Assembly: GCA_019057635.1 (NCBI GenBank)
Contig: DXJL01000156.1
Location: 1-64,000 of the forward strand
Reading direction: 5' to 3'
Length of the DNA: 64,000 nucleotides
From: Candidatus Heimdallarchaeota archaeon
GTDB taxonomy: Archaea > Asgardarchaeota > Heimdallarchaeia > Hodarchaeales > Hodarchaeaceae
Both the position numbers and the translations under genes were made by a program. How positions within the stretch are numbered: position 1 is the first letter of the stretch; each line of letters begins with the position of its first letter. Positions 1 to 58,551 of this stretch are shown here, piece by piece. The notes below the pieces were generated by a model. The model was given only the letters and a program-made list of their open reading frames with translations, did not search any database and was not told where the DNA came from.

Positions 1-40
1 ATATGAAACACTTAATGGCTTTGATCCGAATAGATACATG

Positions 41-393
41 ATCTTTTTTGTCTTTTATGCCAATATTTCTCGTATTCGCTGACCGCTCTCTCTGACAATC
101 TCAAAAGTCCTCCCTCCCTTACTTCTTCAATCCCGAGGTGATGACAAAAAAATTTTTCTTAATTCTTAGGTCATATTTCCTTGTAACTACGTTAGACGAG
201 TTACCCGTCAAAGGCAAGAGAAGAATGGCCCAATCTGGTGGAAATTCATAAGTGTTTGGGAAATCGCAAGCAGATCTGATTCAAGTAGTCCCAATGGAAA
301 GCAAACATTCTCTTGTTGCTAACCTGCCAGATAGCGGTGTGTGACTCATCCTGTCCAGAACTATTTGCTAAATAGTTGTCTGACAAATATAGT
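41..393 (+). mobile_element. Non-autonomous, internally deleted (MITE-like) derivative of the TnpB element at 54330-55742
   Basis: Flanked by CATG at 37-40 and 394-397. 82-93 is an exact 12-mer match to revcomp 55650-55661. 183-215 matches revcomp 54946-54978 at 29/33. 282-397 closely matches revcomp 54326-54441. The segments are collinear. Confidence 0.85.
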
Positions 394-415
394 CATGAAG
401 ATTTTTCATAATCTT
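282..415 (+). ncRNA. Putative orphan omegaRNA (TnpB guide scaffold plus flanking guide)
   Basis: Homologous to the tnpB 3'-end/right-end region where omegaRNAs are encoded. The hairpin AACTATTT-GCT-AAATAGTT replaces AACTC-GTTTTCAA-GAGTT of the full element. Boundaries are approximate. Confidence 0.5.
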
Positions 416-728
416 ATGATACAATTAGGTGTAGAACCATATTCGGAAACTGATCTTTCTTCTGAGGATCCTTCAACCTATTGAAAAAACGATAGTCTTC
501 CTTTAGTGTAAATTAGGGCTAGTCTGCCATAAATTTCTTAGACTAAGTCTGAAATTTGAATAATTATTTATCGAAATAATCTCTTAATTATCTTACTTAC
601 AGAATATGTAGTAAATTACATTTATTAATGTCCATTAGAGAGAGAGGAATTGACGAATATCAGCTGTTAAGACGAGAAAAGCGTCAAAAATAGCTTTAGT
701 ATAAAACAAATCGTAGACGTGTATCACA

Positions 729-4485: not shown

Positions 4486-6585
4486 GTGGGTCTAAAGCCA
4501 GAACGTATGAGTATTGCCAAAATTACAGTTGATCACGCAGCAGGCCGATCTTTTCTGAGTAATATTGGGGCTAAACTTGAGCTAGAATTAATTGATTTAG
4601 TAAAGACAATTAGTATTGAACCCAACCCCCCAACTAAGAAAGAATCCAAAACAATAGCATTATTAGAAGAATTTTCGCGCCTTACCGATTTAATTGATTC
4701 ATTATCACTTACAAATAAACGCCAGAAGATTGATCTTGAGCGAGATGAGCTGGAGGAGATAAATTTCGAGGCCGAAAAATTATTCGACCGAACTGGACAT
4801 ATTGTTGCCGAAGTTGAAAAACTTCAAGCTCAGAAACAAAATTTAAGCGTGGTTCGTACAGCAGTTCAATCCCTCGATGCATTACAGGGATTAGATATTC
4901 ACGATGTGCAAGATTTTGGAACTGGTACCCATTTTTATGCTGTTCTTGGTTTTCTTAAGGGAATTCACAGTTTTCGCTTAGAAATGGCTCTCGATCAGCT
5001 AACTGGTGGAGAATTCATCTATAAGCCTATCAGTTCAGATAAAACTAAAAATATTTGCTTGATTGGAGTTATGAAGCGATTTAGTGGTCCTTTGGATCGT
5101 CTTCTTAGTGGACTTGGGTTTGAACCAATCACTATTCCCCCGAAAATTGTTGGTCCACCTGAAGAAGCAAAGAAAAAGGCGAACGCTCTACTAGAGCACC
5201 TAGAATTAGATTATGTAACTCTTAAAGAGAAAATTAATTCTGAATTAGGGAATGAAATAAATAATATTCGAGCTATGACAGAACAGCTTGAGATTGAATC
5301 TACTCGAATTTCTCTTCTCCAGCGAAGTCAGTTAAAGAATGAGAAGTACATAATTTGGGCTTGGATTCCCAAAAGACAGATTAAATCACTTAAGCGGATG
5401 ACGGCTAAAATCGATTCTAGCATAACTTTGAATATCATTGCAAAGCCTAAGCTTCAAAGTGAGGAATTTCCTTCATCTATCCATAACAATATATATTCTC
5501 GCAATTATGAGGATCTAATTCATGGATTTGGAACCCCTGGATACAACGAATGGGATCCTACCAAGGTACTTAGCATTTTAATGCCCATTTTCTTTGGTAT
5601 TATGTTCGGAGATGTAGTAGATGGATTTATTGTTTTTCTAATTGGATTATATGGGTTATCATTGAGTAAAGAGAAGTACTCCACAAATTCAATGCTTTCA
5701 GAGCTTCAAACATACTTCGATAAAGGAGGGCCTATCTTAGTTACCTTTGGATTAACAGCAATGGTTTTTGGGTTTTTGTTTGGCAGTTTTCGTGGGTTAG
5801 GCGGGGAACACGCCCATCATCTCGGCCTTGAACCCTTGTGGTTTAGTCCAGAGGCTGAAGGAGGCCAGTTCGCATTATTGGAATTTGCGATCGTGCTAGG
5901 TATACTAGTAATTTCTCTTGCTTTGTTTATGCAGTTCATCAACCTGTTATCACACGACAAATGGGAAGCCATTTTTCTACCTGGGATGTTCTTAGTATTT
6001 TACATTTCACTTTCATTTTTGCTCTTTGCTTACGGTCCCGATCCAATGAAGTGGATTTCGGAAACTACTGGAAGTGTTGACTTACTCGCGTTACAAGAAA
6101 AAACTGCTCATAGTTTAATTGGTCATAATTTAGGTCTTGATTGGGTTGCTGACATGGGTATACCTGTGTTTGCTATTGGCCCTGTTAGTTATCCCATGTT
6201 CTTTTTACTCGTTTCATTTCTTTTAACGACAATATATCATTTCAAACATGGTATGGATGGCATGAGTGAATGGTTAGATTACACAATTACAATGATTTCG
6301 AATACAATATCATTTGCGAGGATATTCGCTTATAATATGGTTCATGGGTCATTATCCTTAGTTTTCATTCAAATTCTCGCTGGTAGCGGAGAAGGTTGGG
6401 CGGATGTATTACCAGGAATGATTATAGGAGCTCCAGTTGTTATCGGTTTAGAGTTACTCGTTTCATTCTTACAGTCCTTACGTCTCTGTTGGGTAGAATT
6501 TTTCGGAAAACTAGGTTATCAAGGAACTGGGCGTAAATTTATTCCATTTAAAGAAAACCGTTGGTTTACAGCAATTACAGGCTAA
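4486..6585 (+). CDS. atpI: A/V-type ATP synthase subunit I (a)
   Basis: P..Y.E.DPT, FFGIMFGD, essential Arg in SNTISFARI, LQSLRLCWVEFFGK. Start reassigned to GTG 4486, after a GAGGTGA RBS. Confidence 0.92.
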   Translation: MGLKPERMSIAKITVDHAAGRSFLSNIGAKLELELIDLVKTISIEPNPPTKKESKTIALLEEFSRLTDLIDSLSLTNKRQKIDLERDELEEINFEAEKLFDRTGHIVAEVEKLQAQKQNLSVVRTAVQSLDALQGLDIHDVQDFGTGTHFYAVLGFLKGIHSFRLEMALDQLTGGEFIYKPISSDKTKNICLIGVMKRFSGPLDRLLSGLGFEPITIPPKIVGPPEEAKKKANALLEHLELDYVTLKEKINSELGNEINNIRAMTEQLEIESTRISLLQRSQLKNEKYIIWAWIPKRQIKSLKRMTAKIDSSITLNIIAKPKLQSEEFPSSIHNNIYSRNYEDLIHGFGTPGYNEWDPTKVLSILMPIFFGIMFGDVVDGFIVFLIGLYGLSLSKEKYSTNSMLSELQTYFDKGGPILVTFGLTAMVFGFLFGSFRGLGGEHAHHLGLEPLWFSPEAEGGQFALLEFAIVLGILVISLALFMQFINLLSHDKWEAIFLPGMFLVFYISLSFLLFAYGPDPMKWISETTGSVDLLALQEKTAHSLIGHNLGLDWVADMGIPVFAIGPVSYPMFFLLVSFLLTTIYHFKHGMDGMSEWLDYTITMISNTISFARIFAYNMVHGSLSLVFIQILAGSGEGWADVLPGMIIGAPVVIGLELLVSFLQSLRLCWVEFFGKLGYQGTGRKFIPFKENRWFTAITG

Positions 6586-6586
6586 A

Positions 6587-7702
6587 ATGACTACGATTAA
6601 ACATAATCAGGAATATGAAATTATGGCTTTTCATCAGATCCGTGAAGCAAAGGACTATTCTTTTATTAACGCAAGGATCAAAGCACGTCGAAGCCAGCTC
6701 CTAACAACAAGTGATTATGAGCACATTCTAGATATTTCTTTAGAAGATGGAATTTCTGTTTTACTCGAACATCCCCGCTATCATGATGCACTCCGAGAAA
6801 TGTCTTCTCAGTCGAGTCCACCCTCCCTAATGATAGAAAAATCATTAACTGACTCGCTTCAGGTTGAAATTCATTCCCTAATGAAGAATCTTCCTAATAC
6901 GGATCAAGATTTTTTATCATTCTATTTGAAGAAAAATTCTCTTAAAATAATTGAAGACATTCTTTTTAAATTACATAACTCGGATAGTAAACCTTTAGAT
7001 TTAGCAAATCGCTATATTTCCTCTCCCGAAGAACGTGTAGAACTAATCCAAGCCACACAAGTCACCTCAATTGAAGAGTTAGCAGAAACAGTGACAGAAA
7101 ACTGGTTACGGAAAGCTATTTTATCCTCGCTTGATATATACAATGAAACAAAGGATATTTTAGAAATTGTTTATAGAATAGAGCGCGCGTTCTATGAAGA
7201 ATTGGTGAAAGTAAAAATTCCAAATCTCAAGAGAATGAGCAAAACTATAGCGGAGAAAGTTTTAGGTATAGAAATAGACCTGAATAATATTAACATTGTT
7301 CTTAGACAAAAAGCAATGAAAAAAATTGGTTCTTCAATCGAATCCTTAGTTATACCCCTTCACTACCGTTTAAAAGCGGATTTTGATGATTTACTAAATG
7401 CTTCGTCACTCACAAGCGCATTCTCGATATTAGAATCAACCTATTACGTTGATTTTACCCGAAAGGTTCATAATAGCTACATCATGAAAAAATCGATCGA
7501 AATGTTAGAACAAATACAACAAGAATATTTCTTACGATCGCTAACAAGTATTATGGCTGGTTATCCCTTCCATTTGGGTATTCTACTAGGTTATTATCAC
7601 TATCGGAAACAAGAAGTTGAAAATCTACGTATTATCTTTGAGTCAAAAATTAAAGAGGTAGACATTGAATTTACACGAAATTTACTCATTTACAGTATAT
7701 GA
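6587..7702 (+). CDS. atpC: A/V-type ATP synthase subunit C (d/AC39)
   Basis: DYSFINARIKARRSQLL, EIDLNNI, EVENLRII; lies between subunits I and K. Confidence 0.88.
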   Translation: MTTIKHNQEYEIMAFHQIREAKDYSFINARIKARRSQLLTTSDYEHILDISLEDGISVLLEHPRYHDALREMSSQSSPPSLMIEKSLTDSLQVEIHSLMKNLPNTDQDFLSFYLKKNSLKIIEDILFKLHNSDSKPLDLANRYISSPEERVELIQATQVTSIEELAETVTENWLRKAILSSLDIYNETKDILEIVYRIERAFYEELVKVKIPNLKRMSKTIAEKVLGIEIDLNNINIVLRQKAMKKIGSSIESLVIPLHYRLKADFDDLLNASSLTSAFSILESTYYVDFTRKVHNSYIMKKSIEMLEQIQQEYFLRSLTSIMAGYPFHLGILLGYYHYRKQEVENLRIIFESKIKEVDIEFTRNLLIYSI

Positions 7703-53460: not shown

Positions 53461-54276
53461 TTACTTCCGTTTCTTCAATATTAAAGCATAATGGTGATGG
53501 ATATTGGAAACAAAACTATATGGATAGCCATACGGTCTCAAATTTTTCTGATTTTGTAACCAAATTCGTTCTCCCAAAAAGGAATACCATTTTGTTAGAC
53601 GTAGGGGGAGTTCGAAGGCGAGAGGTATCATTTCTCCCTTATCCCTGACATTTTGGATAAATACAATTAGATGGGCTTGGGGAAGTAATAGTTCATGAAT
53701 TTTAGTGAATATATCTACCAATTCATTTAGGAACTCTTCTTTTTCTTCTATCATTCCTAAATCAAGAGGATTTTGCCCATATTGGAGGTCGAGACCTTTT
53801 TCTAAGCGTTCTTGTTGATTATAATCTTTTTTTTTCTTTAATATTCGCCAATATGGAGGAGAGGTGATGCAAAGAGAAAAAGATTGTTTTTCTAAAGTGG
53901 GTAGAAGTATTCGGACATCACCTTCAAGAACAGGGAACTTTGTTCTAGATTTTGCAGTTTTAAAATACTTAGGATAAAGTTCTATACCGATACCCTTTCT
54001 TGCTGTGTTTTCACAGGCAACTAAAGTCGACCCTGTCCCCAAAAATGGATCTAGTACTATTTCACCAGGTTTCGTGAAAAATTCGATGAATTCTTCTATC
54101 ATAGAGGGAGGAAATGACGCAGGATGTAAATCAATCTCATGTGAAATGTCACTTGGTCTACCATCGGCTATAAACCAAGATTTTGTAAAACGAATCCACT
54201 CTTTCCCCGAGAGTGCGTTTAGCTTATTCCGAGGATCAATCTTTCCTGAATCTTTCATCACTATCCACTCTCTCAA
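53461..54276 (-). CDS. Alpha-class amino DNA methyltransferase (probably N4-cytosine)
   Basis: HPASFP; LDPFLGTGST precedes TSPPY. Confidence 0.88.
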   Translation of the reverse strand: MREWIVMKDSGKIDPRNKLNALSGKEWIRFTKSWFIADGRPSDISHEIDLHPASFPPSMIEEFIEFFTKPGEIVLDPFLGTGSTLVACENTARKGIGIELYPKYFKTAKSRTKFPVLEGDVRILLPTLEKQSFSLCITSPPYWRILKKKKDYNQQERLEKGLDLQYGQNPLDLGMIEEKEEFLNELVDIFTKIHELLLPQAHLIVFIQNVRDKGEMIPLAFELPLRLTKWYSFLGERIWLQNQKNLRPYGYPYSFVSNIHHHYALILKKRK

Positions 54277-54309: not shown

Positions 54310-54445
54310 AGGTACGGTGAGGAATCATGACTAAAATTGTCAGACAACTCTTGAAAACGAGTTCTGGACAGGATGAGTCACACATCCGCTATCCGGCAGG
54401 TTAGTAACACTAGAATGGATACTATCCGTTGGGACTACTTGGGAG
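54310..54445 (-). ncRNA. Putative omegaRNA overlapping the tnpB 3' end
   Basis: Canonical position for an omegaRNA. The sequence is conserved in the copy at 282-397 up to CATG and diverges immediately after, at the predicted scaffold/guide boundary. Boundaries are approximate. Confidence 0.65.
54330..54349. repeat. Right-end terminal inverted repeat
   Basis: ACTAAAATTGTCAGACAACT versus revcomp of 55723-55742, ATCAAATTTGTCAGAACACT. Confidence 0.7.
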
Positions 54446-55611
54446 TCTGTAGGATAACGTTGAAGAATATTCCGAGCCGCGTTATAATCGGCATTCAGAT
54501 GAACCCCGCACCTCTGACAACAAAAGGAACCTCGCGATGTTCGATTCCGCTTATCTACATGGCCACACTTACTACATTGTTGGGAGGTATACGCTTCGTC
54601 TACCCGTACTACGGTCATTCCAACAAGTTTAGCCTTGTATTCAAGCATTTGAACCAATTGGGAGAAGGGAAGTTGAATAAACGACTGATTTATCCGTTTT
54701 CCTAAGTTGCAGTGCTGTTTCCATCCCGCATTATAACCAATGACTAAGGTCTTTATCTTCTGCTCTAAACAGTAGTTGATTATTCGACGGGAGATTTGAT
54801 GGAAGATATCGTGGAGCTTATTAATCCGTCTACGATGTAGGCGTTGTATACGACGAGTAGTATACTGATGATTACAGATGGTGGCTAAGGATCGATAATG
54901 CGCAAGTTGCTTGTTATACCACTGATTAATGGTCTTAACTACCCCGCCTTTGACGAGTAAGCCGTCTGACGTAGTTACGAGATTGGTAAGACCGAGATCT
55001 ATTCCCATAGTTCGGGATGGAAAATCAGAGGAAGGAAATGGTTGCGCTTGTACTTCATAGAGTAATTCTACCACAAAGCGATCATAAAATGGCACTAACC
55101 GCGCCCCAACACATGCTTCCGCTGTCAATGGAAGAGAATCCAGGGGAAAGGTCGGAAACCCTCGTGCCATGAGATTTCGAGTAAATAGAATTTGGCTATT
55201 ACGGATTCGAACTCTGCGCCGGGGAAAGCTCAGCATATACATTCCGTTCTTGGGTTTATATCTAGGGGTTCGGGGGCGGGTTCGAAACCGGCCAGGATCC
55301 TTTTTCCAAACTTTCAGCGCGTTAAAAAAGCTGCGCCAAGTTTGTTCTACCTGTCGTAGGACCTGTTGGGGTAAATAGCTATCAGACATGTCTTTTAATG
55401 CTAGATACACTGGTTCGTGCTTGAGGCGATGATATAGGTTGGTATATTGGATCCATTTCCCTGTACTGAAAAATTCTTGTCGTACCTCATATGTCGCTCG
55501 ATTATAGAGATTTTTGGCACAGGTGCACAAATCGGTGAAAATTGGCCTAGGTTTCATTTGCATTCGGATAGCTAATTGGGGTTGAGGGTTTTTCTTGATA
55601 CGCATTCCCAT
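54340..55611 (-). CDS. tnpB: RNA-guided endonuclease TnpB with rearranged RuvC-II
   Basis: AKNLYN, QQVLR, RuvC-I GIDLG, LVIGYN, VDEAYTS, CSKCG..CQRCG, RuvC-III NADYNAARNI. Confidence 0.95.
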   Translation of the reverse strand: MGMRIKKNPQPQLAIRMQMKPRPIFTDLCTCAKNLYNRATYEVRQEFFSTGKWIQYTNLYHRLKHEPVYLALKDMSDSYLPQQVLRQVEQTWRSFFNALKVWKKDPGRFRTRPRTPRYKPKNGMYMLSFPRRRVRIRNSQILFTRNLMARGFPTFPLDSLPLTAEACVGARLVPFYDRFVVELLYEVQAQPFPSSDFPSRTMGIDLGLTNLVTTSDGLLVKGGVVKTINQWYNKQLAHYRSLATICNHQYTTRRIQRLHRRRINKLHDIFHQISRRIINYCLEQKIKTLVIGYNAGWKQHCNLGKRINQSFIQLPFSQLVQMLEYKAKLVGMTVVRVDEAYTSQQCSKCGHVDKRNRTSRGSFCCQRCGVHLNADYNAARNILQRYPTDSQVVPTDSIHSSVTNLPDSGCVTHPVQNSFSRVV

Positions 55612-55722
55612 TCCTTTTTGGAATTTTCACTCTTATAAACTTGAGACAAAGAGAGAGCGGTGAAATTGATGAATGTGATGAAATTGAACCCTTTTTCTTC
55701 CCGACCAGTACTGATAAAAACT

Positions 55723-55742
55723 AGTGTTCTGACAAATTTGAT
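55723..55742. repeat. Left-end terminal inverted repeat
   Basis: AGTGTTCTGACAAATTTGAT, immediately followed by CATG. Confidence 0.7.
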
Positions 55743-55743
55743 C

Positions 55744-56391
55744 ATGCCTAAGATTCAGTGTATCATATTCGATGTGGATGGGACATTACTTGACAATACA
55801 AATTTTATAGTATCCCTATTTCAGGATACTGTAATAAAATATCTTGGACCAGCAAAAAGTATGTCTAGGAATGAAGTTTTGTCATTATGGGGTCCACCTG
55901 GAGATGAAATCTTTAGAAAAGTATTTCCACCCGAGGTAGTTGACGAAGCTTGGTCAGAATTTCTCATTAAGTATCGTAACACTCATACAAAAACGGGTTT
56001 TTTTTCTCGTGTGGAATTGAATGACTTTCGGAAATATGTTCAATATCTAGTAATTTTTACTGGTAAATCGCGTTATACTAATACCATCTCTTTGGAAGAA
56101 TTGGATATTACTGATTGTTTCGACCTTATCTATACTGGAAGTGATGTGGAAAATTCAAAACCCCATCCTGATGCACTGTTCCTTATATTAGAAGATTTAG
56201 ATCTGAATCCGGATAAAGTAATCTTTATTGGGGATAGCCATCTTGATATCATTGCAGGAAAGGCTGCAGGTATTCCAACCGCTGGGGCCGAATGGGGAGC
56301 AGTTGAGTTGGAAAAGCTCCTCCAAAGCAAGCCTGATCATGTTTTTAAGACCCCAAATGACTTTATCAAGTTCATAGAAAGCGCTTCATGA
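55744..56391 (+). CDS. HAD-superfamily phosphatase (PpaX/Gph-like)
   Basis: FDVDGTL, TGK, KPHPD, IGDSHLD. The true start is ATG 55744, inside the CATG repeat. Confidence 0.9.
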   Translation: MPKIQCIIFDVDGTLLDNTNFIVSLFQDTVIKYLGPAKSMSRNEVLSLWGPPGDEIFRKVFPPEVVDEAWSEFLIKYRNTHTKTGFFSRVELNDFRKYVQYLVIFTGKSRYTNTISLEELDITDCFDLIYTGSDVENSKPHPDALFLILEDLDLNPDKVIFIGDSHLDIIAGKAAGIPTAGAEWGAVELEKLLQSKPDHVFKTPNDFIKFIESAS

Positions 56392-56406: not shown

Positions 56407-58551
56407 ATGACTAAAAAAATGATTGAAACCACTTTTCCAATCATTGAAATAAGTCAACTCGCCATACCTGAACGCAGCAGCTATAAACCTATTTATCAGA
56501 TTTCTAAATGGTTTGCCCGACGATCTTCGGCTATTTTTAGGGCCATTCTCCTTAGCTGTACTCTTAATTCATCAGAGAATTTCATGGACGAATTTTATAA
56601 TGCTAAGGATAGTTTCAAAGATATAACTATTCTTGATCCATTTATGGGAGGAGGAACAACAATTATAGAAGCTTTAAGGCTTGGTATGCAATGTATCGGA
56701 GTTGATATTAATCCAGTTGCATGGTTTATCACTAAAACTGAGAGTGCTATGGTCGATATAGAAGAACTTCAAGGTTTAATCACAAAATGTGAAGAAAACC
56801 TTGAAAATGATGTGAAAAAATGGTATAAAACCTCCTGTCCAGTATGTGAGAATCCCGCTGATATAATTTACACTCATTGGGTCAAATGCTTACCCTGTCC
56901 GACATGTAATTCACTCATCCCTATGTTTCGTAATTTTCTTGTCGGTTATTTGGCTAATGAGGCAATCCTTCTCTGTCCCTCATGTTATGCAGTATTTCCT
57001 TCAAATAAACCGATCACATCAGATAATAGATGTCCTGAATGTACTCAAAAATTCAAACCGAGTGCGGGTTTTAGAAAGGGTAGAAAATTGCTCGAATGTC
57101 CAGATTGTGGAAATTCTGTCAATATCTTAAACTCTATTCGTTCGATTAAGACTCCTCTCGCTTGCAAACCGTTTGCCATTGAAGGATATTGTTGTCACTG
57201 TGCAAATGAGAAAGATCCTGATTCAGACCTTGCAAAATCTAGATATAAATTTATCAAAAGAGTTTCACAAACAGACAGAGATCTTTATAAAAAGGCTGAA
57301 GATCACTGGAAGAATTATTCAGGCATCTTTCTTTGGCCAAAAGAAGATATCCCGATTGGCATGACAACAAAGGTTTTATTAAATCATAACTATACTAAAT
57401 GGGCTGACCTATTTACATACCGTCAATTATTAACTTTGAGTTTAATTTTAAACTTCATTAAAGACATTGAAGAAGAACATCTCCAAGAGATGTTTTTAGC
57501 GGCATTTCTAAACCTCTTAAATCACAACAATTCGTTTACAAGGTATTCTCCTAAAGGGCAAAAAGTCGAGGGGATATTTTCTCGCCATGATTTTCACCCT
57601 TTGTCTACATTTGCAGAAAATAATGTGTGGGGGACGAGATATGGACGTGGAACTTGGATCAAATGCCTCAAAAGATTACTAGAAGGGAAGAAGTACAACC
57701 TTGAACCCTATAATTTTACGTCTATAAATTCCAAAGAAAAGATCTCTAAGCGTCGAAGAATCGTATCTGGTAAAATTGATGGAAAAGTATACAATGGAGA
57801 AATTGAGCATTTTCCTGATGAAAAAAGTAATTTACTTCTTCTCTGTCAAGACTCTGAAAAACTTCCCTTGTTTACAAATGGCGTTGACCTTTTGATCTCT
57901 GATCCCCCGTATGCTGATAATGTAAATTATTCAGAACTATCTGATTTCTTATATGTTTGGATTCGATTAATATTACAGGAAAAATATCCCTTCTTTATTC
58001 CAGTTGAGACTCCAAAATTGGGAGAGGCAATTGAAACAAAAAATAGAGGTACTGATTACTATTCCAAACTCTTTAATATTTTTAGAAGCTGTAAGAAACA
58101 GCTCATCCCAGGTGGGTTGTTTGTATTTACATTTCATCATGGTAATCCTGATACTTGGTTTAAACTTGCTGAAGTAATTGAATCGTCTGGTTTTAGCGTG
58201 GTTAAAACGCATGTTTTGCAGAGTGAAGCCTTGAATGTTCTGAATATCCAAAATAAGAAAGCCGTGTCTTATGATTTAATTCTTGTCTGCCAGCAGAATC
58301 AACAAAAAAGGAAAAAACCCCATAATTTATCAGAATTTGTAGAACGGTTAAGCAAGAATTATGATAAGAAATTTACCTATTATACTGAGATAGGTCTCAC
58401 AATACATACAAATAATGTGATAGTTGTATTCTTTGGTGAATATTTGGAGCTTATTTCAAAGGTACAACCAGTAAACTGGTCAGACTCAATTGCTAAATCT
58501 GATCTAAGAAAAAGTTGTAAAGACCTTTACTCGAGTAAAATTATTGCCTGA
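56407..58551 (+). CDS. DUF1156/COG1743-type adenine DNA methyltransferase with multiple Zn ribbons
   Basis: KWFARR, DPFMGGGT, six CxxC pairs, SDPPYADNVNYSELSDF. Confidence 0.88.
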   Translation: MTKKMIETTFPIIEISQLAIPERSSYKPIYQISKWFARRSSAIFRAILLSCTLNSSENFMDEFYNAKDSFKDITILDPFMGGGTTIIEALRLGMQCIGVDINPVAWFITKTESAMVDIEELQGLITKCEENLENDVKKWYKTSCPVCENPADIIYTHWVKCLPCPTCNSLIPMFRNFLVGYLANEAILLCPSCYAVFPSNKPITSDNRCPECTQKFKPSAGFRKGRKLLECPDCGNSVNILNSIRSIKTPLACKPFAIEGYCCHCANEKDPDSDLAKSRYKFIKRVSQTDRDLYKKAEDHWKNYSGIFLWPKEDIPIGMTTKVLLNHNYTKWADLFTYRQLLTLSLILNFIKDIEEEHLQEMFLAAFLNLLNHNNSFTRYSPKGQKVEGIFSRHDFHPLSTFAENNVWGTRYGRGTWIKCLKRLLEGKKYNLEPYNFTSINSKEKISKRRRIVSGKIDGKVYNGEIEHFPDEKSNLLLLCQDSEKLPLFTNGVDLLISDPPYADNVNYSELSDFLYVWIRLILQEKYPFFIPVETPKLGEAIETKNRGTDYYSKLFNIFRSCKKQLIPGGLFVFTFHHGNPDTWFKLAEVIESSGFSVVKTHVLQSEALNVLNIQNKKAVSYDLILVCQQNQQKRKKPHNLSEFVERLSKNYDKKFTYYTEIGLTIHTNNVIVVFFGEYLELISKVQPVNWSDSIAKSDLRKSCKDLYSSKIIA

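Follow-up and report, generated by a model that had tools for sequence, protein, structure and literature searches.

PATEs (palindrome-associated transposable elements) are short elements derived from tnpB elements of the IS200/IS605 type, and were first described in Haloquadratum walsbyi (PMC3119063, in part). Related elements can be found in Geobacillus stearothermophilus. There, gene-less PATE-like elements of IS605 encode omega RNAs that need TnpB in trans (PMC10055086, in part). The omega RNAs of TnpB lie over the 3' end of tnpB and continue up to the end of the transposon (PMC10055086, in part).

Other branches of tnpB are associated with different transposases. In DDE-associated branches inverted repeats surround tnpB, and repeats also surround the aCas1-tnpB loci of Asgard archaea (PMC10691335, in part). 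In some of these DDE- or aCas1-linked lineages, some of them in Asgard archaea, solo tnpB is moved in trans, and a conserved GTTCACTCA motif occurs downstream of aCas1-linked tnpB (PMC10691335, in part).

The locus described here lies at the beginning of a stretch of 64,000 nucleotides (the window, positions 1-64000 of contig C133) from an Asgard archaeon of the Heimdall/Hod type. The source genome, G000, is 91.6% complete. The element at this locus is TnpB-derived, probably omega-RNA-bearing and MITE/PATE-like, and clearly belongs to an already known type. Its family behaves as would an omega-RNA-carrying PATE derived from IS605; that it is a member of IS200/IS605 proper is unproven. A literature search gave no full-text match joining Asgard, TnpB and MITE, and by title and abstract none of the papers on Asgard TnpB transposons is about this family; the supplementary end lists of PMC10691335 and PMC3119063 may hold it.

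Members of the family resemble PATEs in several ways. They are too short for a protein, their near-terminal palindromes are common to tnpB-only elements, they seem to be inserted next to a short specific oligonucleotide, they have more copies than their parents, and TnpB would be needed in trans. They differ in that PATEs are defined as having no inverted terminal repeats (PMC3119063, in part), whereas this family has a 21-bp repeat. In addition, the core of the target is the element's own last four bases, the palindrome CATG; there is an extra conserved stem-loop block derived from RuvC-I; and the host is an Asgard archaeon.

The family can also be compared with classical MITEs. Like them, it is short and non-coding, has inverted repeats (the left arm being degenerate in the window copy) and short direct-repeat flanks, occurs in many copies, and shares its ends with a larger element. 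Unlike in classical MITEs, the larger element encodes TnpB and no transposase, the ends being common only to tnpB-only elements. Moreover, conservation extends beyond the terminal repeats, its larger part falling in a structured, RNA-like module.

The full element and the miniature

A full tnpB-only element of the same family is located 54 kb away in the window, at 54326-55746 on the minus strand. It measures 1421 bp including both CATGs, which are found at 55743-55746 (left end) and 54326-54329 (right end). Its tnpB gene (54340-55611, minus strand) is intact and encodes 423 amino acids, with the stop codon inside the right-end palindrome. The protein matches the Pfam families OrfB_IS605 (PF01385, E = 6.6e-21) and Cas12f1-like TNB (PF07282, E = 4.1e-25), as well as PDB chains of TnpB and Cas12f, and it has the RuvC-like and zinc-ribbon domains of an IS200/IS605 parent.

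Uninterrupted, near-full-length copies of tnpB occur four times in the source genome (on C133, C152, C72 and C35). In other genomes of the genus there are seven complete close relatives of the element. These too contain tnpB only, and some 130 bp separate the gene from the left end upstream of it. The closest named TnpB records come from 11 loci in Heimdallarchaeota and Hodarchaeota MAGs, at 67-82% identity; the remaining relatives reach at most 39%.

The earlier note on this DNA had described 37-397 as a miniature of the TnpB element, and every piece it listed can be found, in collinear order and on one and the same strand of the tnpB element. In a comparison of window positions 1-600 with the whole window, 37-397 gives four collinear matches to the element at 54326-55746, minus strand. 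The left tip, 37-52, reads CATG-ATCTTTTTTGTC; its counterpart CATG-ATCAAATTTGTC is the reverse complement of 55731-55746. An exact 12-mer, ACCGCTCTCTCT, is shared between 82-93 and 55661-55650, a match that alone is at chance level (E = 1.8). The piece of tnpB coding sequence, previously given as 33 bp, extends over 33-36 bp and belongs to the RuvC-I part of the gene (180-215 against 54981-54946, 86% over 36 bp, E = 4e-5). The strongest match is the right end, for which about 115 bp had been claimed and 117 bp are found (282-398 against 54441-54325, 84.7% over 118 columns, E = 1.8e-27). CATG flanks the element on both sides, at 37-40 and 394-397, and the right edge reads ...TTGTCTGACAAATATAGT-CATG.

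The reading preferred here, with a probability of roughly 80%, is that 41-397 is a non-autonomous miniature element which arose by collinear internal deletions of a tnpB-only transposon and later multiplied to form a separate family. The deletions would have kept the left end, the A/T-rich block with the start region ahead of tnpB, 47 bp of structured sequence derived from RuvC-I, and the last ~115 bp, which in a complete element overlap the tnpB 3' end. The near-terminal palindromes and the terminal TCATG would have been kept as well.

By the IS605 convention, which counts only the right CATG as part of the element and leaves out the left one, the insert is a type-1 MITE of 357 bp (41-397, plus strand). 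The left CATG (37-40, plus strand) is the target tetranucleotide and the proposed core of the TAM, and its ATG is a Met codon shared with the host gene. Next to it lies the left end (41-62, plus strand), an inverted-repeat arm with a near-terminal palindrome, degenerate in C133 (TTTGTCTTTTAT). When the left 135-165 bp of MITEs and full elements are aligned, the left part of the MITE proves to be that of the full element with one deletion of about 44 bp. This alignment includes the A/T-rich block at 100-107 (plus strand) and the start region of tnpB. The block reads CTCAAAAG in the window copy and CTTAAAAGG in the consensus, is conserved between type 1 and type 2 MITEs, and aligns with CTTATAAGAG upstream of tnpB; it is probably the remnant of a TATA-like tnpB promoter. 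The remnant of the start region, GAGGTGATGA (135-144, plus strand), contains an ATG at 141-143 that opens no conserved ORF.

The internal conserved block from the RuvC-I coding piece occupies 176-222 (plus strand) and consists of a hairpin, GTAACT/AGTTAC, within the stem TTYCCYTYG/CRAGRGAA. The right end (282-397, plus strand), common to full tnpB elements, is the proposed omega-RNA scaffold of about 115 nt. Within it are two covarying structures on the plus strand, helix 1 at about 296-324 and a terminal hairpin at 360-376. The right-end palindrome TTGTCTGACAA follows at 376-386 (plus strand), then the spacer ATATAGT at 387-393 and the terminal CATG at 394-397. The flank directly after the right end, 398-417 on the plus strand, would be the guide of the window copy's omega RNA, going by its position in the TnpB model (PMC10055086, in part).

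A small protein encoded by the MITE in the TnpB frame was considered and rejected. Out of 30 copies examined, 3 were left unscored because one of the two motifs used in the search was missing; in only 4 of the other 27 is the TnpB frame open from the conserved ATG through the internal block. The allele of the window copy on the overlapping contig C182 is one of these 4, with an 86-codon 'mini-TnpB' relic.

The interrupted host gene

What looks like intergenic sequence separating the enolase and PEP synthase genes consists of a disrupted gene together with a mobile element. The host gene, a small and conserved archaeal one, has 152 codons. Its first 124 codons are found at C182:399-770 (minus strand), in a frame of 124 residues that ends ...FDPNRYM and lies directly downstream of the enolase gene. 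The end of this N-terminal part, ...YETLNGFDPNRY, is at 1-36 of the window (plus strand). The severed C-terminal part, 28 codons and a stop, is at 398-484 (plus strand) and reads KIFHNLMIQLGVEPYSETDLSSEDPSTY before the stop; its ending EDPxTY-stop is conserved in four homologues. Next after the host gene comes the PEP synthase gene, at 729. A single RNA run, metatranscriptome X18, covers only 897-1047, in the PEP synthase gene.

Deleting the element had been said to restore an open frame, and it does: once the 357 bp are removed, the frame reads ...FDPNRY-M-KIFHNLM...EDPSTY and the stop. Homologues of the host frame can be found in 9 of 41 genomes, the source genome included. All four near-full matches (in G002, G018, G004 and G015) are uninterrupted and span the junction, both pieces being contiguous in one frame with exactly one codon, M or L, at the site of the element. 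The closest empty site, in G002, has TATATG where the source genome has TACATG. In the homologue of G023 (31% identity) the C-terminal piece is not recognisable, and a Pfam search gave no family for the host protein. The insertion, directly after CATG at an internal Met codon, shortens the host protein by 28 residues. It is later than the split from G002.

Several observations would be expected if the edge of the contig were a chimera with other copies of the repeat and no true insertion existed at 37-397. The window begins only 36 bp before the element, C182 and C133 differ at 15 positions inside it, and contigs from public runs repeatedly end within 41-397. Such an assembly artefact can hardly be the explanation, however. 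The element lies between identical flanks in two contigs, C133 and C182. In X1, the run in which this DNA is best represented, each junction is crossed by a contig (one of 990 nt covering 1-74, the other of 636 nt covering 359-994), and the two halves of the host gene abut the two CATGs exactly. Among the public-read contigs, none joins across the element; the only skip is an internal one of 119 bp (218 to 338), seen in one contig each in X1 and X2.

The differences between the two contigs bear on the state of the left end. C182 overlaps positions 1-437 of the window with identical flanks; each of the 15 differences is inside the element, and 6 of them are at 53-60. At these positions C182 has the canonical palindrome TTTGTCCGACAA, whereas the version in C133 is damaged. 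Contigs from public runs share the state of C182 at several of the differing positions (108, 329 and an extra base at 337), and because of this the damaged palindrome at 53-60 may be an assembly mixture, not real decay. The degenerate left end reported in the earlier note is thus correct for C133 but not for C182, and is perhaps partly an effect of assembly. If the damage in C133 is taken at face value, the window copy may no longer be mobile.

Ends and target site

In MITEs and tnpB elements alike, each tip has the palindrome TTGTC-N-GACAA at a distance of seven bases from its terminal CATG. Together the two ends make an inverted repeat of 21 bp, CATGATCAAATTTGTCAGACA / CATGACTAAATTTGTCAGACA, in which at best 19 positions match, as they do in several copies. 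When the genome and its relatives were searched with the element and the flanks tabulated, the other copies in the source genome proved to have the same ends, and CATG flanks prevail. There are 78 matches to the end motif with at most 3 mismatches; CATG follows in 48 and CATA in 8, and the remainder are mostly weak matches.

Empty sites can be used to define the target. Two insertions in G002, L070 and L066, correspond to uninterrupted sequence in the source genome, with a single CATG at C150:13173-13176 and C31:5501-5504. The target is therefore CATG. Since this core is also the element's last four bases, insertions look like a 4-bp duplication. A CATG on both sides of insertions and one CATG at empty sites fit such a duplication and the placement of a CATG-ended element after CATG equally well.

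The base in front of the left CATG distinguishes the two sides of the target. A T stands there in only 1 of the source genome's 35 ends and in 5 of 66 overall (a sample somewhat overstated in size, as copies in related genomes are non-independent; the count of 1 in 35 stands alone), whereas T precedes CATG at 37.5% of the 8426 sites genome-wide. At the mirror position, after the right CATG, A is found in 23 of 44. The right end of the element itself always reads TCATG. This avoidance of T in front of the left CATG makes the target asymmetric: it is VCATG, as against the TCATG borne by the element. This asymmetric -1 position favours integration next to VCATG. Characterised TAMs are T-rich, for example TTGAT or TTAC.

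Family size and spread

The source genome contains 12 near-full matches to 37-397. Pairing of ends yields 10 type-1 elements of 355-365 bp, 7 type-2 elements of 359-363 bp, and 6 tnpB-only elements of 1336-1424 bp with the same ends as the MITEs. Two type-1 copies lie outside the end pairing: the window copy, whose left arm is too degenerate, and a 5'-truncated copy on C22. The two MITE types share about 68% identity and are collinear along their entire length, and type-1 copies are 79-97% identical to the window copy. In this Asgard archaeon, gene-less carriers of the putative omega RNA outnumber the protein-coding parents.

The earlier note regarded the miniature as a second, independent insertion that confirms the element's ends and a CATG target. 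Ends and target do agree. The right ends of the miniature and of the element 54 kb away, however, are 85% identical, against 79-97% among MITE copies, so the miniature was not copied from that element but is one of a MITE lineage that has been amplified.

Within the genus, 6 of 21 genomes contain the family; outside it, none of 19 does. It has been mobile since the source genome and G002 diverged, as empty and filled sites differ in both directions. Twelve MITE loci of relatives were compared with the source genome. Two have clean empty sites there, one site is occupied by another subfamily, and one locus (L058) is a truncated copy that is shared, being the copy on C22; at least one truncated copy is thus common to the source genome and G002. 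At L072 there is no room for an insertion in the source genome, and the junction is unaligned. The other seven are uninformative, with the flanks on different contigs, a single flank matched, or neither. The family has moved after a split between close species, in genomes without a detectable matching transposase.

Structure of the right end and the internal block

Evidence for an RNA structure in the right end can be obtained from covariation. Of 53 right ends, 6 are truncated and were left out; the 47 distinct ones that were aligned (135 nt) come from MITEs and full elements of the source genome and five relatives. RNAalifold predicts 27 pairs in five helices, 12 of them changed on both sides, and 95.1% of the cells in this structure pair. 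The covariation score is 0.255, compared with 0.114 +/- 0.007 in shuffled alignments (none of 500 reaches it) and at most 0.089 with slid partners. Two-sided changes affect all six pairs of helix 1 and all four of helix 5. No information comes from two long-range helices that do not vary, one of them pairing GUGACU with AGUCAU at the extreme tip.

Since the stop codon of tnpB lies inside the right-end palindrome, the structure overlaps the 3' end of the gene and extends up to the end of the transposon, which is where an omega RNA is located. The right ~115 nt are most likely the scaffold of the TnpB guide (omega) RNA, judging by position and covariation. For helix 5, a single-stranded DNA hairpin recognised by a transposase would give an equal signature. 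When the MITE locus and the full element were compared with Rfam, E values of up to 1 being allowed, no omega-RNA family came up, and the only match, to the S15 leader, was sub-threshold. The structured right end is the most conserved part of the element, which for this reason is best read as a mobile omega-RNA gene and not as an inert remnant. With defined ends, a predicted VCATG TAM (TCATG being protected) and a scaffold of about 115 nt for an archaeal TnpB of 423 residues, the family may be useful for the characterisation and engineering of TnpB nucleases.

The block at 176-222 has the 33-36-bp coding piece at its core and hardly varies from one MITE subfamily to the other. Its GTAACT/AGTTAC hairpin stands inside an 8-bp stem with compensatory differences between subfamilies. 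One pair of the stem is T-A in 22 copies, C-G in 6 and mismatched in 1; another is G-C in 24, G-T in 4 and A-T in 1. This stem was found by eye and then counted, and is therefore weaker evidence than the right-end helices. RNAalifold on whole MITEs did not recover it.

How the family may move

A mechanism can be proposed for the maintenance of the MITEs. The right end would be transcribed, perhaps from the retained promoter-like block, to give an omega-RNA scaffold with the adjoining flank, from 398 onward, as its guide. Intact TnpB from full elements would use this RNA in trans and cut vacated joints between VCATG and the flank. The lost copy could then be restored by recombination, while the difference between the right-end TCATG and the target VCATG would keep occupied sites uncut. 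Movement to new sites would need a transposase supplied in trans.

The likeliest such enzyme, named here only tentatively and with none found, is a Y1 transposase of the IS200/IS605 type, which moves single strands by 'peel and paste'. The family resembles IS1341-type (tnpB-only) members of IS200/IS605 such as ISDra2/ISGst (PMC10055086, in part) in its OrfB_IS605 and zinc-ribbon TnpB, in the RNA-like region that runs over the 3' end of tnpB to the right end, and in its clean single-target empty sites. VCATG and TCATG differ at one position, as do the TAM and TEM of ISGst2 (PMC10055086, in part), and this likeness tips the balance towards a strand-specific mechanism. Unlike in IS605, the ends are symmetric, the 4-nt core of the target is palindromic, and no Y1 TnpA was found in the source genome or linked to the family in relatives. 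The Y1 domain (PF01797) has no match in the source genome, at 91.6% completeness. Two of the 21 genomes of the genus have one, a fragment in G013 and a copy with an in-frame TGA in G018, both at loci without the end motif. There is no Y1 gene nearby at any of the 11 Asgard loci with close TnpB relatives; among 67 loci of TnpB relatives, 3, all bacterial, have Y1 beside tnpB, and 1 has a serine recombinase directly upstream. These genomes are MAGs, in which repeats and transposases are often unassembled, so that a transposase not found is not the same as a transposase absent. The same puzzle is known from Haloquadratum, where species-specific PATE insertions were seen without an intact Y1 transposase (PMC3119063, in part).

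Other movers have to be weighed against Y1. The family might consist of classical MITEs, their 21-bp repeats bound by a double-strand transposase (DDE-type or other) encoded elsewhere, with CATG as a true 4-bp duplication at a preferred palindromic site and tnpB with its omega RNA as cargo, as in DDE-associated branches of TnpB. An inverted repeat of 19/21 with CATG on both sides, the lack of a Y1 match, and one CATG site occupied in opposite orientations in two species all agree with this. The family is also like DDE- and aCas1-linked TnpB in having inverted repeats and a tnpB 3' end within 250 bp of the transposon end (PMC10691335, in part), but no DDE or Cas1 gene was found inside it or sharing its ends. 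The only product of a Cas1 search is a sub-threshold fragment (17.8 bits) at the end of a contig, without the end motif. Nor does a longer element with these ends appear: a paired-end scan of up to 8 kb in the source genome gave no credible element above 1424 bp, and the seven complete tnpB relatives in the genus have no room for another gene. A comparison of the source genome with itself, for repeats of at least 500 bp, gave no transposase besides TnpB, a 2.27-kb repeat among them being a duplicated block of ORFs that look ordinary by eye. Finally, the asymmetry of the target (T in 1/35 on the left, A in 23/44 at the mirror position) would be unexpected of a symmetric enzyme on a palindromic site. 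Classical MITEs are accordingly a somewhat unlikely account.

Serine recombinases of the IS607 type, acting in trans, are an improbable source of movement. The source genome does have resolvase-domain genes adjoining TnpB-like genes, on C54 (7009-7419 by 5876-6976) and on C56, these more distant TnpB genes being 41% and 27% identical, and immediately upstream of L119, which at 35% identity is the nearest TnpB relative from outside the Asgard archaea, there is a serine recombinase. Against this, the resolvase elements on C54 and C56 have ends unrelated to those of the family, with nothing resembling them on the C54 element; no serine recombinase TnpA thus lies within the same ends. The TnpB type of 41% identity occurs in most of the genus, as opposed to 6 of 21 genomes for the MITE family, and IS607 elements are described as having no inverted repeats (PMC6188088, in part). 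More novel, and unlikely, is an Asgard lineage of TnpB and omega RNA transposons that has ceased to depend on either a Y1 or a serine TnpA. Some unrecognised mobilisation route would act on its symmetric 21-bp ends and its VCATG target, and its MITEs would be free-living guide-RNA genes which exploit the TnpB of full elements and carry an undescribed RuvC-I-derived module at 176-222.

One target site, two occupants

MITEs of both ~360-bp subfamilies can be found at one and the same CATG site. In the genome of the window (G000), this site carries a type-2 MITE (contig C191, 21722-22083). The orthologous site in G002, a related genome of the same genus, is occupied by a type-1 MITE (locus L051, 1501-1859) in the opposite orientation, and the flanks are otherwise 94-96% identical between the two genomes. 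The double occupancy suggests that either the two MITEs hit this site independently or one of them replaced the other. A genome has some 20-30 insertions for its roughly 8400 CATG sites, and at these numbers a single coincidence of this kind is not very unlikely by chance.

Reduced and shared parts of the element

An 'ends-only' remnant of 33 bp, in which the left arm is joined directly to the right arm, is located in G000 at C84:3071-3103. It has CATG on one side and CATA on the other, and is reminiscent of the 52-bp terminal-only PATEs of Haloquadratum.

Other copies retain coding sequence. An open frame of 86 codons, an in-frame 'mini-TnpB', consists of the TnpB start and RuvC-I strand (LVTTLDELPVKG) followed by the C-terminal 35 residues. 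It is intact in the allele of the window copy on the overlapping contig C182 (41-402, minus strand) and at locus L058 of G002. Because most MITE copies have frameshifts across it, this frame is probably a relic.

In contigs from public sediment and cold-seep metagenomes, summed depth over window positions 161-240 (RuvC-I block) and 321-400 (right end) exceeds the depth of the unique flanks 10- to 50-fold; in the metagenome run X1, for instance, it is 475 over the MITE modules versus 9 in the unique flanks. Such an excess would be expected if, among the family's parts, the RuvC-I block and the right end are shared most widely in those communities.

Surroundings of the full element

The full tnpB element (window 54326-55746, minus strand) adjoins a HAD-hydrolase gene (55744-56391; Pfam HAD_2), whose start codon is likely the ATG within the CATG on the left-end side (55743-55746). 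The N-terminus predicted from this ATG is MPKIQCIIFDVDG..., and HAD_2 starts 6 residues after. With this likely start, the element would lie exactly between the gene and its upstream region. The GTG start in the ORF list, at 55660, is inside the element.

Two genes with N6/N4 DNA methyltransferase domains (PF01555) bracket the element and the HAD gene: one at 53461-54276 (minus strand) and one of 714 residues with a DUF1156-like N-terminus at 56407-58551 (plus strand).

Other TnpB families in the genome

G000 also encodes an IS607-type pair (C54:5876-7583), consisting of a 195-residue serine recombinase with an HTH-like N-terminal region and a TnpB 41% identical to that of the window (54340-55611, minus strand). 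The pair is separated by 4.3 kb from a type-1 MITE at C54:1183-1542, and a second TnpB gene of the C54 type is found at C163:2645-3736.

A Cas1-like protein at C155:3543-3786 is cut by the contig end, leaving only its N-terminal ~80 residues (PF01867, 17.8 bits, below cut-off); the MITE end motif was not found near this fragment.

Three copies of ~1.66 kb (C104:14209-15871, C152:3625-5286 and C139:3638-5298) represent a third, unrelated TnpB family, whose proteins are 24-26% identical to the TnpB of the window.
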